Assembly: GCA_965279035.1 (NCBI GenBank)
Contig: OZ257142.1
Location: 3,904,001-3,968,000, forward strand
From: Bacteroidia bacterium
GTDB lineage: Bacteria; Bacteroidota; Bacteroidia; M30B66
DNA length: 64,000 nucleotides
Direction: 5' to 3'
Part shown: one piece after another, positions 40,915-46,788 of the stretch
Numbering within the stretch: position 1 is the first letter of the stretch
Layout: the number at the start of each line of letters is the position of its first letter
Made by a program: the position numbers and the translations under genes
Notes under the pieces: model-generated
Told to the model about the DNA's origin: nothing
Seen by the model: only the letters and a program-made list of their open reading frames with translations
Databases searched by the model: none

Positions 40915-41616
40915 GTGAGTGGAATTCGAATTCTACATATTGAAACAGCAACAACAGCTTGTTCTGTATCCATTGCTGAAGATGGAAAATTGATTTCTGT
41001 TCGTTCAATAAGTGAAGGATATAAACATGCAGAGAATCTATTCAAGTTGATTCGGGAAGTGATGGAAGATGCTGCTTGGAAACAACAGGATTTGTCGGCA
41101 GTAGCAGTTTCGGCAGGACCAGGATCATACACAGGATTGCGTATTGGAGTTTCTGCAGCAAAGGGAATTTGTTATTCTTTGTCGATTCCGCTCATCTCCA
41201 CTTCTACCCTATTTACCTTAGCTGCCGGTTTCAAACGTCGATTTCCAGAAATAGACACCTTGCTTTGTCCTATGATAGATGCCCGCAGAATGGAAGTGTA
41301 CACTGCAATATATTCTGCCGATTTGCATACGTTACGCTCCGATCATCCACTTATAATAAAAGGCACAGAAAGTATCCCAGAATTAAACGAGCAGGCTGTG
41401 AGTTTCTTTGGTGATGGGGCGTTTAAGTGTGTTGAGTTGATGGATCAACATCCGAATTTCGGGTATTATAACAACATTGAACTTTCAGCCGAAGATATGG
41501 TTCAATCTGCCCTTGAATCGTATCAACTGGGCAGCTTTGCCGATCTTGCCTATTTCGAACCAGAATACTTGAAGCCTTATCATGGCACTCCGCCCGTTTC
41601 CAAACCCCTGTTTTGA
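40915..41616 (+). CDS. tsaB: tRNA t6A biosynthesis protein TsaB
   Basis: ILHIETAT, GPGSYTGLRIG, IDARRMEVY and EPEYLK motifs. Confidence 0.96.
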   Translation: MSGIRILHIETATTACSVSIAEDGKLISVRSISEGYKHAENLFKLIREVMEDAAWKQQDLSAVAVSAGPGSYTGLRIGVSAAKGICYSLSIPLISTSTLFTLAAGFKRRFPEIDTLLCPMIDARRMEVYTAIYSADLHTLRSDHPLIIKGTESIPELNEQAVSFFGDGAFKCVELMDQHPNFGYYNNIELSAEDMVQSALESYQLGSFADLAYFEPEYLKPYHGTPPVSKPLF

Positions 41617-41653
41617 AAATGAATGCATATTAAAATGCTGAATTCAAATTGCC

Positions 41654-41790
41654 CGCTTCGACAAGCTCAGCGCGCAGCATCAGCCAAGCTGATAAGATCC
41701 GATATCATTCACGCTCCCTGAGCCTGTCGAAGGGAGCACATCTCCCGATAACTATCAGGAACACCAGCACATCATCTAATCAGCACATCA
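41654..41790. repeat. REPIN-like element (inverted CTTCGACAAGCTCAG repeats) plus octamer tail, copy 1
   Basis: CTTCGACAAGCTCAG at 41656-41670 and CTGAGCCTGTCGAAG at 41718-41732. Near-identical inverted copy near 48070-48180. Confidence 0.85.
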
Positions 41791-42726
41791 ATGAAAGGCC
41801 TCGTCATTCGTTCTACAGGAAGTTTCTGCACGGTAAAGACCGATGATGGAAATGTGCGCGAGTGCAAAGTAAAAGGTTCGTTTCGGATGAAAGGAATTAG
41901 AACAACAAACCCAATAGCAGTAGGCGATCGTGTTGTTGTTGAAGCATCACTTGGTGGTGATTATTTTGTGATTACAGAGATTGAACCTAGAGAAAACTAC
42001 ATCATCCGACGTTCAATCAATTTGAGTAAAGAGGCTCATATTTTAGCTGCCAATGTGGGGAAAGCGTTTATTATAGTTACTATCAGTTCTCCTCGTACTT
42101 CCTTAGGTTTTATCGATCGTATGCTCATTAATTGTGAAGCGTATCATATTCCAGTTTCCATTGTTGTAAATAAATGTGATACGTATTCAAGCGATGCTGA
42201 TATAGATAAATTGGCTGAATTGCAAGACATCTATAATCAAGCAGGCTATGAAGTAATCCTTGTTTCTGCTCTCAATGGATTTCAATTGGATGCCTTGAAA
42301 TTACAAATGGATGATAAAATCAATTTGTTTATTGGTCATTCTGGTGTTGGAAAATCAACCTTAATCAATTCCTTAAAACCTGGACTTCAATTAAAAACAG
42401 GAGATATTTCAGCTGCTCATAGCAAAGGAAAACACACGACTACCTTTGCCGAACTATTCGAATTGTGGGAAAATTCTTGGATTATTGATACTCCAGGAGT
42501 GAAAGAATTTGGGATTGTGGATATGAAGAAAGAAGAGATTGGTGACTATTTCCCTGAAATTCGACGCTTAGCTGAACATTGTCGCTTCAGTAACTGCATG
42601 CATGAAAATGAACCAGGATGTGCAGTAAAAGAAGCTGCCGAACATGGTGATTTTTCAGCAATTCGATACAGTTCGTATCTTGGTCTGCTCCATTCTGAAG
42701 AATTAAGTAAAGAATCCTGGGACTAA
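41791..42726 (+). CDS. rsgA: Ribosome small subunit-dependent GTPase A
   Basis: [29 protein letters not shown] and [12 protein letters not shown] motifs. Confidence 0.97.
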
Positions 42727-42728
42727 GT

Positions 42729-43181
42729 ATGAGAGTTGTTGTCCAGCGTGTATCGAGCGCTTCCGTCAGCATTGACGATTCCGTTTACAGTAAAATCCGA
42801 CAGGGATTAGTATTGCTTGTTGGGATTGAAGAAACAGATGCAGTAGAAGATTTAGTTTGGCTAGCAGCTAAGATTGTGAACATGCGCATTTTTAGCGACG
42901 ACAAAGGGCTGATGAATAAAAGCGTAGCCGATATTTTTGGGGAAATTTTAGTGATTAGCCAATTTACCTTGTATGGTAGCACTAAAAAAGGAAATCGACC
43001 TTCGTTTATTCGCGCTGCTCGTCCAGAATATGCAACCAAATTGTATGAGATGTTTTGTGCTCAATTGAGTCAGGAATTAAGTCGACCGGTAAAGACCGGA
43101 GTATTTGGAGCTGATATGCAGGTTTCCTTGATAAATGATGGTCCTGTAACTATTTTGATTGATAGTAAGCACCGAGAATAA
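42729..43181 (+). CDS. dtd: D-aminoacyl-tRNA deacylase
   Basis: [20 protein letters not shown] and NDGPVT motifs. Confidence 0.97.
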
Positions 43182-43228: not shown

Positions 43229-44929
43229 ATGAAAAGAAAAATACTCTTTATTCTCAGTGCCATGATATGCATGGCTGTTGCATTTTGGCCATCTCAATCT
43301 GCACATTCTAATGGAAGTGGCGCTGCTGCTGGTTATACTGGTTCACCCAATGAATTTTCTGGTAGAACCTGTTCGGCTGGAGGAAGCTGTCATAGTGGTG
43401 GAACTACAGCACAAACTGGCTGGGTAACATCTACAGTTCCTGCTTGTGGCTATACTCCCGGACAAACCTATTCCGTTACTGTTTTTGTAACATCACCAGG
43501 AAGAACCAAATTTGGATTCAGTGCATCACCACAAAAACCGAATGCTACTCTTGCCGGAACTCTCATCGCTGGAACTGGTATGCAAATAAACGGAAGTGGA
43601 AAATACATCACCCACACCAGCGCAGGAACAACTCAAACTGGTACCAATAGCAGAACATGGACATTTCAGTGGACTGCTCCAGCTTCCGGAACTGGAACTA
43701 TCACTTTTTACGCAGCCATGAATGCAACCAATAGTAGTAATACAAGTGCTGGTGATATGATTTATAGTTCAAACTTGGTCATACCTGAAGCACCTGCTAC
43801 ATTGGCGATTTCTAATAGTGGATCAACAACATATTGTCAATCAAGTCCAGTAACATTAAGTTCCAACATCTCAGGTGGCAACGATTGGAAATTGGATGGA
43901 GTTTCTGTTGGGTCTCAAAATTCGGTAGTTGCAAGTGGAAGTGGAACGTATCTTCTAACAAATACGACAGGTGCTTGTGTTCAAACAGCGAGTGTAGTTC
44001 TCACTTCGGTAGCAAGTGCTCCGGTTGTTTCGGATATTGTTGTTGGATCTCAAGGCTCAACACTTTGCGAAGGACAAAGCACTACATTAACTGCAACTGG
44101 CTCGGGTGTAACATGGCAACCAGGCGGACAATCCACCAACAGCATTACTGTTAGTTCAGCAAATACTTATACATATTCGTTAACGAATGTATGCGGAACA
44201 AGTACATCCAACCCGGTAAGTGTTATTGTAAATCCTTTGCCATCAACACCTGTGATAACTACAGATGGTGATGTAACACAAGCATGTGAAGGACAAACAA
44301 TCGGACTCAATGCCTCAAATATTTCGGGAATAGAACAAGCTACTTGGCAACCTGGAGCTTTGACTGGTAACTCGATTCAAGCAAGCCAAACGGGAACTTA
44401 TTCTGTAGTATACTCTAATGGATGTGGCAATTCATCGAGTGTTTCGGTAGATCTTCAATTCAATCCAATTCCCCAAACACCTTCAATTTTTGTCAATGTA
44501 GATTTAGATCTCGAAGCAACCATTGATGGTTCTTCGTATGAATGGTATTTAAATGGAACATTGATCGATGGGGTAATTGATCAAGTTTTAACACCAACTG
44601 GACCAGGACTCTATTCGGTAAAGGTTATTTCAGGGGATGGTTGTAATAGCGCTATATCGGCTGAATTTGAAGTTCTTGCTTTAGGAATTGCTCATAATAA
44701 ATCAACTGATGGTATTCGTTGCTTTCCAAACCCAAGTGCTGGAATTGTTCAAATTTCTGTTTCAGGAAATCAACATGGGGCTCACTTTCAGCTTTTCGAT
44801 TGTACAGGAAAACTCGTAAAAAGCTTTGTATGCAGGAACAATAGCTCTCAAACAATTGACTTAAATAGTCCATCAGGACTGTATTTTCTACGAAGTGAAA
44901 ACTGGAGTTCTACTTTAGTAATTGAATAA
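43229..44929 (+). CDS. Secreted Reeler/choice-of-anchor V-like protein with Ig-like repeats and T9SS CTD
   Basis: GYTGSP...TC....CH, YTPGQTY, FGF and WTFQWTAP motifs; C-terminal FPNPS...GLYFL. Confidence 0.75.
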   Translation: MKRKILFILSAMICMAVAFWPSQSAHSNGSGAAAGYTGSPNEFSGRTCSAGGSCHSGGTTAQTGWVTSTVPACGYTPGQTYSVTVFVTSPGRTKFGFSASPQKPNATLAGTLIAGTGMQINGSGKYITHTSAGTTQTGTNSRTWTFQWTAPASGTGTITFYAAMNATNSSNTSAGDMIYSSNLVIPEAPATLAISNSGSTTYCQSSPVTLSSNISGGNDWKLDGVSVGSQNSVVASGSGTYLLTNTTGACVQTASVVLTSVASAPVVSDIVVGSQGSTLCEGQSTTLTATGSGVTWQPGGQSTNSITVSSANTYTYSLTNVCGTSTSNPVSVIVNPLPSTPVITTDGDVTQACEGQTIGLNASNISGIEQATWQPGALTGNSIQASQTGTYSVVYSNGCGNSSSVSVDLQFNPIPQTPSIFVNVDLDLEATIDGSSYEWYLNGTLIDGVIDQVLTPTGPGLYSVKVISGDGCNSAISAEFEVLALGIAHNKSTDGIRCFPNPSAGIVQISVSGNQHGAHFQLFDCTGKLVKSFVCRNNSSQTIDLNSPSGLYFLRSENWSSTLVIE

Positions 44930-45105: not shown

Positions 45106-45137
45106 TTTGCATCGTATCCTTCTCGTTTCTATGTTTG
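45106..45137 (+). promoter_or_regulatory. Consensus Bacteroidota sigma-A promoter for the tRNA-like RNA
   Basis: TTTG (45106-45109), 20-nt spacer, TATGTTTG (45130-45137). Confidence 0.75.
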
Positions 45138-45156
45138 CAGTAATAAGTTCTTTTAT

Positions 45157-45308
45157 TGTAGGGTGTTGAAACGGCAGACAAACCCTCTTGTCTCGAGGGT
45201 GAGGAATTACAGGATAAACGATGTTTAATGGGTTGACCACTCCCTTCTGCTTGCAGAAGTTGAACATTGGCTAACTGCCTCGTGGAGGTTCGAATCCTTC
45301 TCCTACAG
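45157..45308 (+). tRNA. Atypical tRNA-like RNA (GUC anticodon) with an 81-nt variable arm
   Basis: Acceptor TGTAGGG/TCCTACA plus G73; D arm TTG-AAACGGCAGA-CAA; anticodon arm CCCTC-TTGTCTC-GAGGG; variable arm GAGG...CCTC (45201-45281); T arm GGAGG-TTCGAAT-CCTTC. No encoded CCA. Confidence 0.8.
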
Positions 45309-45327
45309 CGAATCCCCTAATACCCAG

Positions 45328-45367
45328 CCCCCGACGTTTGTGATGGTTCGTCGGGGGTTATTTTTTG
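45328..45367 (+). terminator. Intrinsic terminator after the tRNA-like RNA
   Basis: CCCCCGACG...CGTCGGGGG followed by TTATTTTTT. Confidence 0.8.
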
Positions 45368-45369
45368 CC

Positions 45370-46740
45370 CTATTCTGAATATTTATCTAATAGATAAAGC
45401 AAGGCTGCAATCGAAGCAGCACCTAATTCTAGTTCACGTTTGTTCACTTTGTCGAACGTATCGGAAGCTGCATGGTGAATATCAAAATAGCGTTGTGAAT
45501 CGGGAATGTATCCAAGACAAATAGTCCCTTGTTTTTTCAATGGTCCAATATCAGAACCACCGCCACCTTTTTTGAAATCGTGCAAACCATAAAGCTCTAA
45601 AAGGCTTTTGTAAGCAGCTATTTTGGCAACAATAAGTGGATCATCACTGTCAACTGCAAATCCTCTCGGAGTAAATCCACCTCTATCGGATTCTATCGCG
45701 TATAGATGTTTCTCTTTTAAAGAATCGGCTAAGGCTGCGTATCGTTTTCCTCCACGAAGACCATTTTCTTCATTCATAAAAAGTACAGCTCGTAGATTAT
45801 GTCGAGGTTGATAGCCTATTTGGTGTAAAATGCGCAGAGCTTCATAACTCTGAACACATCCAGCTCCATCGTCATGCGCTCCTTGCCCATTGTCCCAAGC
45901 ATCGAGGTGACCACCGCTAATGAGATAAGAAGCATTCGGAAGCGAACCTTTCAATTCTCCAATGACGTTATGAGAAATCGTATCAGGTAACATTTGAGCA
46001 TTGCTAATTAATTCTACTCGTAATGCTGGATTCTTCTTGAGTGCATTGCTTAACCAGCTTGCGTCAACCGTACTTATTGCTAATGCTGGAATTTTAGGAT
46101 ACAAGCTGTCATAACCCATTGCTCCTGTATGAGGAAATTCATCTTCCCGTAAGGAAACACTTCGTACTAATGTTGCTACAGCACCATATTTTGCCGCTTT
46201 AGACGGTCCTGCCCATCGTTGATCTACACAACCACCATACGCTTCGAATGTATGGATGTGTCGAGGTTCCATAGGACGAGAGAAAAAGACAATTTTTCCT
46301 TTAATACCCGCTTCACCGAGTTGATCAAGTTCTTCGAATTTTTTAACTTCAACCACAGTGGCATTTGCCTTCCCTCCTACACTACCGCCCAAAGCACAAG
46401 AATTCAAATTTTTAGGGGCTGCTCCTTTTTGTTTGATAGTAACTGTACTAGCTGTACCTCGAACCCAATGAGGAACCATCATTTTTTGCAAAAATGCAGC
46501 ATCGAATTGCTCTTCTTTCATCACACTAAGCATATAATCAACAGCTTGAGCTGCACCTGGAGAACCACTTAAACGAGATGGAACTTTCGTACACAAATGT
46601 TCAAGTACTTCATAGCATTTGCTTCCAGTTAGAGCCTGATCAAAGATCTTTCGAATAAAGAGGGAATCTTCCTGATTCTGAGCGATTGCTGAAGTAGATA
46701 GAAAAAGTAAAATGAGCAGATAAAAGCGAGGAATAATCAT
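45370..46740 (-). CDS. M28 family metallopeptidase (carboxypeptidase Q-like) with PA domain
   Basis: SRLSGS, GGHLDAWD, GAHDDGAG, FMNEENGL and YFDIHH motifs. Start at ATG 46740 preferred. Confidence 0.9.
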   Translation of the reverse strand: MIIPRFYLLILLFLSTSAIAQNQEDSLFIRKIFDQALTGSKCYEVLEHLCTKVPSRLSGSPGAAQAVDYMLSVMKEEQFDAAFLQKMMVPHWVRGTASTVTIKQKGAAPKNLNSCALGGSVGGKANATVVEVKKFEELDQLGEAGIKGKIVFFSRPMEPRHIHTFEAYGGCVDQRWAGPSKAAKYGAVATLVRSVSLREDEFPHTGAMGYDSLYPKIPALAISTVDASWLSNALKKNPALRVELISNAQMLPDTISHNVIGELKGSLPNASYLISGGHLDAWDNGQGAHDDGAGCVQSYEALRILHQIGYQPRHNLRAVLFMNEENGLRGGKRYAALADSLKEKHLYAIESDRGGFTPRGFAVDSDDPLIVAKIAAYKSLLELYGLHDFKKGGGGSDIGPLKKQGTICLGYIPDSQRYFDIHHAASDTFDKVNKRELELGAASIAALLYLLDKYSE

Positions 46741-46753
46741 AGGACTAAAGGAC

Positions 46754-46788
46754 AAAAAAAAATCCGGAAGAGGATGTCTTTCGGATTT
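46754..46788 (-). terminator. Probable intrinsic terminator
   Basis: AATCCGGAAGA...TCTTTCGGATT stem with an A-run on the left. Confidence 0.6.

Follow-up and report, generated by a model that had tools for sequence, protein, structure and literature searches.

A tRNA-like RNA gene with a large structured arm

We analyzed a 64,000-nucleotide (nt) stretch of DNA from a Bacteroidia bacterium (assembly GCA_965279035.1, contig OZ257142.1, positions 3,904,001 to 3,968,000; referred to here as the window). The window encodes a single copy of a tRNA-like RNA that carries an 81-nt structured arm in place of the usual variable region. This RNA spans tRNA positions 1 to 74 and lies at 45157 to 45309 on the plus strand (153 nt), as do all of its elements given below. 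The 5' strand of the acceptor stem (TGTAGGG, 45157 to 45163) pairs with the first seven nucleotides of the 3' strand and tail (45301 to 45309), namely, TCCTACA at 45301 to 45307. The first pair is U1-A72, and the stem is followed by G73 (45308) and C74 (45309). CCA is not encoded, since the sequence after G73 reads CGA. U8-G9 leads into a class II, Leu-like D arm (45166 to 45181) with a 3-bp stem, TTG/CAA, and a 10-nt loop, AAACGGCAGA. The anticodon-like arm (45182 to 45200) reads A-CCCTC/TTGTCTC/GAGGG-T and presents the triplet G34 U35 C36 at 45190 to 45192, with U37 at 45193 and C38 at 45194. The T arm (GGAGG/TTCGAAT/CCTTC) occupies 45284 to 45300.

The arm at the variable position (45201 to 45281) rises from a base helix, GAGG/CCTC, through a 2-bp helix (45212-45213 with 45275-45276) and an internal loop (ATAAAC/GCTAA) to a distal stem (45219 to 45228 with 45260 to 45269). 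Above the distal stem are an apical region and one extra hairpin (45244 to 45259). The apical motif TGGGTTGACCACT (45229 to 45241) can be drawn as a small hairpin, G-GG-UUGA-CC-A-C.

The gene has its own transcription signals. A Bacteroidota-type promoter (45107 to 45138) consists of TTTG (45107 to 45110) and TAtgTTTG (45131 to 45138), 20 nt apart, and ends approximately 19 nt upstream of the RNA 5' end. It was named by its resemblance to TTTG/TAnnTTTG, which we take to be the promoter consensus of Bacteroidota; a sigma-70 promoter scan did not list it. An intrinsic terminator (45328 to 45366) is formed by a 9-bp G+C-rich stem (45328 to 45336 with 45349 to 45357), a 12-nt loop, and TTATTTTTT, and the terminator scan overlooked it because of the length of that loop. 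An initial annotation of this DNA had described the cloverleaf, its arms and anticodon-like loop, U37, C38, G73, U1-A72, and the missing CCA, all of which we read again at the coordinates given above; the promoter and terminator that it had proposed were likewise located in the sequence. Its drawing of the variable arm held as well, including the 81-nt length and the GAGG/CCTC base, with the one correction that its TGG/CCA hairpin was redrawn family-wide as G-GG-UYGA-CC-A-C.

The RNA gene is flanked by a gene for a secreted protein with a type IX secretion system (T9SS) sorting tail (43229 to 44929, plus strand) and by an M28 peptidase gene (45370 to 46755, minus strand). Farther upstream there is a run of translation-related genes (40915 to 43181, plus strand) encoding a TsaB/TsaD-family protein (40915 to 41616), the GTPase RsgA (41791 to 42726), and D-Tyr-tRNA deacylase (42729 to 43181).

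Standard annotation tools do not recognize the RNA

ARAGORN made no tRNA call across the 64-kb window and none on homologous units. Rfam 15 gave no match at gathering scores in the window, and a local Rfam search at E<=10 gave no tRNA match, returning just two chance snoRNA matches (15 to 17 bits, E 2 to 6). In a single-sequence fold of the window RNA, the acceptor, anticodon, T, and variable-arm helices were recovered and the D region was paired otherwise. The z-score of this fold was -1.5, and 12 of 200 shuffled sequences folded equally well. The window sequence by itself is therefore not beyond chance, and the evidence has to come from relatives. The absence of an ARAGORN or Rfam call on the RNA, and the frequent use of tRNA genes as integration sites, would suit a tRNA gene in decay that has picked up an insertion by chance, or else the remnant of a phage attachment site. 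This explanation is taken up again below, with the evidence from relatives.

Covariation defines an RNA family

Twenty-six diverse units were aligned with MAFFT. In this alignment 98.8% of the cells were paired, and compensatory changes were found in 18 of the 35 pairs, a level that none of 500 shuffles reached; in slid-partner controls, 46 to 55% of cells were paired. The changes extend into the large arm, where they affect 3 of 4 pairs in the base helix, both pairs in the 2-bp helix, and 6 of 8 pairs in the distal stem. Within the tRNA body they were seen in 3 of 7 acceptor pairs (pairs 1 to 4 do not vary in any of the 26 sequences, and pairs 5 to 7 covary), 2 of 3 pairs in the D stem (variants AUG/CAU, UUG/CAA, and ACG/CGU), and 2 of 5 pairs in the T stem. 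The anticodon-like stem showed compensatory change in none of its 6 pairs, and its sequence itself hardly varies.

We built a covariance model of the family (R1), which matches the window copy over its full length with 141.9 bits (E of 1.7e-37). R1 identified 93 family members in 67 sources searched, where the nearest ordinary tRNAs scored 21 to 38 bits. Outside those 67 sources, the nearest ordinary tRNAs under R1 were tRNA-Leu, at 45 to 52 bits. We have next to no doubt that the family is real. In the checks with Rfam and ARAGORN that the initial annotation had suggested, no known family or tRNA was recognized for the window RNA, and the covariance model built from Bacteroidota homologs, also suggested there, revealed covarying stems inside the insert. 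It had noted a class II, Leu-like D arm, and a body of this type is borne out by the identity of the nearest ordinary tRNAs, which at 45 to 52 bits score far below the 142 bits of the window copy. Its description of the RNA as a functional tRNA mimic is supported by the covariation, by the broad conservation of the RNA, by its tandem rows, and by its presence in phages, all of which speak against a pseudogene.

The tRNA body is more constrained than the large arm

Conserved features were counted in 83 host and 64 viral unique sequences, and encoded CCA was counted in 87 host and 114 viral units. The constant elements of the family are a 5' UGU, U8-G9, a nearly invariant D loop, GAAA..GGCAG.C, along with GGUUCGA and a 3' ACAG-C. 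U8, G18G19, U48, the GGUUCGA T loop, and the 7/5 acceptor/T branch are all conserved. C follows G73 without exception in both sets of units, and CCA is encoded in 11/87 host and 8/114 viral units. The anticodon-like arm is near-invariant, CCCUC-(Y N G/N)UCUC-GRGGG-UG, most commonly CCCUC-YUGUCUC-GRGGG with U37 kept. UCUC fills positions 35 to 38 in 82/83 host and 64/64 viral sequences, and the loop YUGUCUC, together with G73 and G2-C71, is present in 74/83 host sequences; the loop statistics that come from pattern-found loci carry the bias of the search pattern.

The arm at the variable position is conserved in a different manner. Its internal loop in chromosomal copies is conserved as GAUAAAC/GCUAAC, and GGGTTGACCAC or a one-base variant of it is found in 64/83 host and 60/64 viral sequences. 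The apical motif GGGUUGACCAC is usual across the family. The whole unit ranges from 119 to 213 nt, with nearly all of the difference in the large arm. Units within one row can diverge strongly in the distal part of the arm while the tRNA body is near-identical (L116:1501-2606, L128:1483-1979, and L113:839-1544), and four of the six units of L116 lack the GGGUUGACCAC apex. One interpretation, which we hold to be tentative, is that the RNA is a tRNA-scaffolded effector, in which the body would give processing signals and stability and the large arm, in place or excised, would bind a protein, a small molecule, or an RNA. The variation in unit length, the differences between arms of one row (L116, L128, and L113), the covarying arm helices, and the two conserved loop motifs speak for this, as does the presence, among the phages that carry the RNA, of another tRNA-like family (described below) with a constant acceptor/D/T frame around a variable middle. 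Against it, 19/83 host sequences have no apical motif and retain the invariant anticodon-like arm, and the strongest constraint therefore lies in the tRNA body and not in the arm. Nor did a complementary target for the arm come to light, although no search aimed at one was made.

The RNA has several properties of a canonical elongator tRNA, namely, the 7-bp acceptor stem, the 5-bp T stem, a T loop of the GTTCRA type, and GG in the D loop, the last two being invariant. It departs from an elongator at position 37, where a purine is expected and U is conserved, and in the variable region, which is 81 nt long here and normally does not exceed approximately 25 nt. Were the RNA a genuine decoding tRNA, specialized for GAY codons or used in recoding with a dedicated factor brought in by the arm (in the manner of tRNA-Sec and SelB), this would account for the complete cloverleaf, the 7-nt loop, the conserved NUC triplet, and the place of the RNA in phage tRNA clusters. 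Moreover, PMC7590224 describes engineered tRNAs with variable-arm aptamers that can stay active in translation. Decoding is nonetheless very unlikely, given the conserved pyrimidine at position 37, the replacement of U33 in some lineages, the ordinary tRNA-Asp genes that coexist with the RNA, and the lack of a dedicated elongation-factor or synthetase gene linked to it in the loci examined. Position 33 is C or G in 7/83 host and 5/64 viral unique sequences (12 in all), and this, with the conserved U37 and the coexisting normal tRNA-Asp, indicates that the RNA is probably a non-decoder.

The RNA is widespread in Cytophagales and is linked to an AsnC-like regulator

We searched several sets of genomes for the RNA, and the counts hold for each group as sampled. 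With R1 at E<=1e-10, matches were found in 121/151 Cytophagales genomes, and 105/151 had strong matches (E<=2.5e-20). The other 16 of the 121 genomes had weak matches alone (E of 1e-11 to 1e-15), of a kind identified elsewhere as tRNA-Leu. A strict sequence pattern matched 41/401 Bacteroidota genomes, and the reversed pattern gave 0 matches. In a BLAST search of 301 Cytophagales genomes, 176 matched, partial matches included; many of the matches were full length and stood in tandem rows of two to five or more with a period of approximately 200 nt. R1 listed up to six units per genome. The copy of a Cyclobacteriaceae metagenome-assembled genome (MAG), G003, has the same body, with the same arm motifs flanking a different and longer distal part, and one Saprospiraceae MAG has a copy. 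The nearest relative by peptidase identity, a 3.1-Mb MAG, yielded tRNA-Leu-level matches alone.

These data bear on the idea of a decaying tRNA gene or leftover attachment site introduced above. It is highly improbable, in view of the compensatory changes within the insert, the strong R1 matches in 105/151 genomes from a single order, the tandem amplification, and phage copies that are full length and not 3' fragments.

In the rows, a TAnnTTTG box precedes the first unit, the units are separated by 45- to 55-nt spacers with small hairpins, and a hairpin followed by a T run stands after the last unit as a terminator. The rows thus look polycistronic, with one putative promoter and one putative terminator each.

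A gene of approximately 155 codons lies divergently some 100 to 150 nt upstream of the RNA in 38/61 loci, with a gap of 36 to 298 nt to the stop-to-stop open frame. Its product has an Lrp/AsnC ligand-binding domain and a helix-turn-helix (HTH) domain. Of the NCBIfam families, AsnC matches it best by far (172.9 bits, short of the equivalog cutoff of 227 bits), and the others score 75 bits or less. We then compiled a second set of 20 loci, hand-picked from strong R1 matches in genomes whose loci had previously been unexamined. An asnC-like gene was present at the same place in 18/20, with sufB beyond it in 11/20. The pairing of the asnC-like gene with the RNA survives changed outer neighbors, as these are an ABC permease in six loci and an HTTM protein with a citrate transporter in L268. 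In many Cytophagales, sufB comes after the asnC-like gene. In G008, a genome that lacks the RNA, it is prfA and not asnA that the asnC-like gene faces.

The divergent intergenic region is 120 to 150 nt long, is AT-rich, and contains a recurring ATTGAA...TCTATA...TTTAAAA-like box, as judged by eye in L081 to L134 and L272 to L291. This box may be an operator of the AsnC-like regulator. This divergently encoded AsnC-type, amino-acid-responsive regulator probably sets the chromosomal expression of the RNA. Tabulation of neighboring genes, as the initial annotation had advised, thus yielded the AsnC-like regulator as the recurrent host neighbor; this link, the tandem arrays, and the phage tRNA-cluster context are additions to what was described there.

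Just past the window RNA, and likewise past the RNA or row of six other loci (L098, L105, L106, L107, L114, and L116), lies a convergent M28-family peptidase gene; the peptidases differ in length (461 amino acids versus about 324 amino acids in the other loci). Starting from the peptidase, 80 loci of the neighboring M28 peptidase were inspected with blastn and nhmmer, and the RNA was beside the peptidase in none.

Large phages carry the RNA, often among tRNA and tmRNA genes

A pattern scan of IMG/VR yielded at least 120 contigs with the RNA. A full unit was found by regular expression in 114 of the 120 contigs listed, and 80 of these 120 were searched with R1; all 80 contained exactly one full-length unit (72 to 153 bits). 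A tRNA or transfer-messenger RNA (tmRNA) gene was within 1 kb in 48/80 viral loci, and 32/80 had no tRNA within 1 kb. Neither asnC nor sufB was near the viral copy in any of the 80 loci, so the viral copies are not host contamination of that locus. Three of the viral records are complete phage genomes of 207 to 289 kb. blastn searches of deposited phage genomes in INPHARED with the window copy and two viral copies gave no match.

Where 14 to 26 tRNAs form a large cluster, the unit sits tightly among the tRNA genes; in L179, for instance, it is 4 to 6 nt from tRNA-Ser(GCT) and tRNA-Leu(TAG). An ordinary tRNA-Asp(GTC) was present in four of the five large phage tRNA clusters inspected. Standard tmRNAs called by ARAGORN adjoin the unit in L188 (5143 to 5517, starting 25 nt after the unit) and in L221 (1840 to 2225). 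A tmRNA within 1 kb of the unit was also noted in L163, L172, L197, L207, and L212. These tmRNA-bearing contigs, L188 and L221 included, have near-complete sets of 20 to 26 tRNA genes. Of 471 ordinary tRNA genes in the viral contigs, 423 do not encode CCA, and the tRNA-like unit is alike in this respect (CCA in 8/114). Large phages have repeatedly captured the RNA, together with tRNAs and tmRNA. The other viral neighbors include the large terminase, an exonuclease, ThyX, and a DnaA-C HTH protein; a 175-amino-acid upstream phage protein and the remaining neighbors gave no informative family beyond these four.

A second tRNA-like family was observed in the same phages (15 units in 7 loci: L168, with 5 units, L175, L179, L257, L258, L263, and L265). 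Its frame is constant and consists of the acceptor AGUCAGG/CCUGACU-A-C, a tRNA-Leu-like D arm, and a T arm. A middle part of 40 to 90 nt, different in each copy, takes the place of the anticodon and variable arms. Examples are L168:7682-7830 (minus strand) and L179:4907-5050 (plus strand), and ARAGORN made no call on this family.

Phage carriage and the frozen anticodon-like arm raise the possibility, which we do not favor but take seriously, that the RNA is an uncharged decoy or sponge. The anticodon-like arm and the apical motif would bind, and titrate or regulate, a tRNA-recognizing protein such as AspRS, a tRNA-modifying enzyme, a stringent-response factor, or an anticodon nuclease of phage defense or bacterial competition, and phages would carry the RNA to protect or reprogram translation. 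The stem sequence itself is invariant, beyond what pairing asks, which suits sequence-specific recognition by a protein, and the high-copy rows and the presence in at least 120 phage contigs, with 32 of the 80 examined having no tRNA within 1 kb, fit as well. There are also precedents, as PMC9976931 mentions anticodon-loop mimics in the mRNAs of ThrRS and yeast AspRS that bind their own synthetase. However, no candidate partner gene is common to host and phage loci, the lone recurrent host neighbor being a transcription regulator, and an anticodon-arm mimic would not require the strict acceptor end of U1-A72, G73, and C74.

A probably non-decoding RNA with a possible role in aspartate/asparagine handling

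The best overall explanation, to which we assign a probability of about 0.5, is that this is a non-decoding, tRNA-derived stable RNA that matures in a tRNA-like manner and for which a function as an aspartate (Asp)/asparagine (Asn) carrier is the most specific lead. The more general part of this, a non-decoding tRNA mimic that matures like a tRNA, is likely. In such a scheme, a large arm is grafted at the variable position of a class II, tRNA-Leu-like, L-shaped body whose anticodon-like arm is almost frozen in sequence. Transcription would start at the RNA's own promoter and, in relatives, run through a polycistronic row of two to six units; the tRNA machinery would then mature the RNA, with RNase P cleavage at U1, 3' trimming, and addition of CA or CCA after C74. 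In favor of such maturation are the conserved U8, G18G19, U48, T loop, and 7/5 branch, the rows with a single promoter and terminator, the tight spacing to tRNA genes in phages, and the constant C74. The RNA would not decode on the ribosome, and large phages carry a copy of their own inside tRNA and tmRNA clusters.

The more specific steps are proposed from identity elements. Aspartyl-tRNA synthetase (AspRS) would attach aspartate to the RNA, since it has every one of the five strong determinants of aspartate identity (G73, G34, U35, C36, and C38); these five, with G2-C71 as a minor determinant, are named in PMC9976931. GatCAB would then amidate the RNA-bound aspartate to asparagine, because U1-A72 is a positive signal for the bacterial enzyme: according to PMC1635274 and PMC2811023, U1-A72 promotes the amidation of Asp-tRNA by bacterial GatCAB and G1-C72 blocks it. 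The product would be an asparagine carrier or an Asp/Asn sink that U37, together with the near-invariant stem and the very large arm, would keep out of translation. The lead thus derives from three independent features, i.e., the aspartate determinants with the minor G2-C71, U1-A72, and the linked AsnC-like regulator. It is a speculative proposal that the RNA is an AsnC-controlled aspartate acceptor converted by GatCAB into an asparagine carrier. We are equally cautious about the related idea of a dedicated nontranslational amino-acid carrier, a hybrid with a tRNA-Asn-type acceptor end (U1-A72 and G73) and a tRNA-Asp-type anticodon loop, which any AspRS could charge ahead of amidation by GatCAB and which the AsnC-type regulator would switch on at asparagine shortage.

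The distribution of GatB was compared with that of the RNA. GatB was found in 41/41 genomes that matched the strict pattern versus 302/360 others, and in 5/5 complete genomes with the RNA. Under independence, and with no correction for phylogeny, the probability of 41/41 is approximately 0.002. Of these five, all have AsnRS and four have GlnRS, so that AsnRS, GlnRS, and GatB are found together in four, in which GatCAB is therefore not needed for decoding. The same GatCAB-redundant situation is described for Bdellovibrio, Deinococcus, and Thermus in PMC4206432.

A number of observations weigh against the Asp/Asn proposal. The association with GatB takes no account of kinship among the genomes. 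Class II AspRS approaches tRNA from the variable-region side, and the 81-nt arm may clash with it. Serine identity, with G73, G2-C71, and a long arm as its elements, is an alternative fit to the features of the RNA. A few members have a nucleotide other than G at position 34 (AUC, CUC, and UUC), and U1-A72, which is present in every host unit, is found in all viral unique sequences except two, which have A1-U72. Bacterial tRNA-Asp has G1-C72 as its first pair, which helps to position the 3' end in AspRS, according to PMC9976931. GatCAB rejects an extra D-loop nucleotide (PMC1635274), and by analogy, the large class II D loop may be a similar antideterminant. The window copy is itself exceptional, with neither asnC nor sufB in the 64 kb. 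All five complete genomes with the RNA have Asn_synthase genes, and the RNA is therefore not needed as the sole asparagine route. Nor was a distribution complementary to AsnA seen, since AsnA occurs in 2/41 genomes with the RNA and in 16/360 without it. Finally, 32/80 viral loci have no tRNA within 1 kb, and the proposal does not account for carriage by phages of this kind.

A replacement of AsnA by the RNA was considered and rejected, as AsnA is rare and not complementary and the asnC-like gene of G008 faces prfA. In the three complete large phage records, no class IIb synthetase was found. An Asn_synthase-domain gene (504 amino acids) is present in two of them (G691 and G692, about 288 kb each, represented by L180 and L207) and is missing from G693 (207 kb); such genes are too common in large phages for this to be counted as support.

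Comparison with known tRNA-like RNAs

Few tRNA-like noncoding RNAs are known, and a function has been assigned to a minority of them. The bacterial Y RNA YrlA, bound by Ro60/Rsr, is one such RNA and, as presented in PMC4201824, has a permuted tRNA-like module with a closed acceptor-like stem, has its two ends within the Ro-binding helix, and is encoded within 4 kb of rsr. Like the giant-armed RNA, YrlA is non-decoding, has conserved D-, T-, and acceptor-like elements, and is found in bacteria and phages, sometimes in several copies. Unlike YrlA, the giant-armed RNA has an open acceptor end, an anticodon-like arm, and an extra module at the variable position, and it is not permuted. An identity as a Y RNA or YrlA was rejected on the basis of the normal tRNA topology, TROVE in 0/5 genomes, and the absence of an Rfam match. 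A link to RtcB, Ro60 (TROVE), or SPFH loci, which the initial annotation had brought up, was not borne out, in that no TROVE gene was found in any of the five complete genomes with the RNA.

Species 1 and 2 of phage T4 (rnaC and rnaD) are reportedly stable RNAs of roughly 120 to 140 nt with unassigned function, encoded in the T4 tRNA cluster. They resemble the giant-armed RNA as similar-sized RNAs among phage tRNA genes that are matured alongside them; the giant-armed family differs in being present also in chromosomes, as AsnC-linked rows, and in having a full cloverleaf. tRNA-Leu shares the D-loop type GAAAYUGGCAGAC, the 3-bp D stem, and the same T arm. In contrast to tRNA-Leu, the giant-armed RNA has G73 (LeuRS requires A73), an unrelated anticodon arm, and a variable arm that is three to six times longer, with conserved internal motifs. 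The Bacillus cereus pseudo-tRNA "tRNA-Other" likewise is tRNA-derived, promoter-equipped, and probably non-decoding, and it differs in parent tRNA, site of the extra element, distribution, and gene context. tRNA-Asn of the indirect pathway (the AspRS/GatCAB transamidosome, as covered in PMC1635274 and PMC2811023) has in common with the giant-armed RNA U1-A72, G73, and an anticodon loop that AspRS may be able to read. The latter differs from tRNA-Asn in its GUC instead of GUU, U37, class II body, 81-nt arm, and large D loop.

Other identities were rejected. The RNA is not a tmRNA, as it has an anticodon-like arm and ARAGORN calls separate standard tmRNAs beside the unit in L188 and L221. A tmRNA-like tag frame in the arm was dropped after inspection by eye because the constraint on the arm acts on pairing. 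tRNA-Sec and allo-tRNA were rejected by the 7/5 branch and the triplet GUC; these have branches of 8/5, 9/4, 8/4, or 9/3 and UCA or suppressor anticodons, with allo-tRNA as defined in PMC5389517.

Implications

A search of the full-text literature, which did not extend to supplements such as candidate-motif surveys, found no description of a giant-armed tRNA-like RNA. The family is apparently undescribed and widespread in Bacteroidota chromosomes and large phages, and standard tRNA and RNA-family annotation misses it despite its wide occurrence. About 70% of the sampled Cytophagales genomes gave strong matches, often with several copies each, and the RNA appears to rank among the major stable RNAs of an entire order.

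The role of the RNA may concern aspartate/asparagine handling. It can be tested through a defined set of features, namely, the anticodon-like arm with its invariant sequence, the acceptor-end elements U1-A72/G73/C74, the covariation in the large arm, and the adjoining AsnC-type regulator. If the Asp/Asn interpretation is true, this would be the first tRNA-shaped cofactor made solely for amino-acid conversion or sensing outside translation, and RNA-dependent asparagine synthesis or sensing would be uncoupled from decoding. GatCAB, otherwise redundant in Cytophagales equipped with AsnRS and GlnRS, would also gain a role, and the copies in large phages would serve to ensure the supply of asparagine during infection. 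If that interpretation is wrong, the family would still be a new handle on the conflict between phages and their hosts over the translation apparatus in Bacteroidota.

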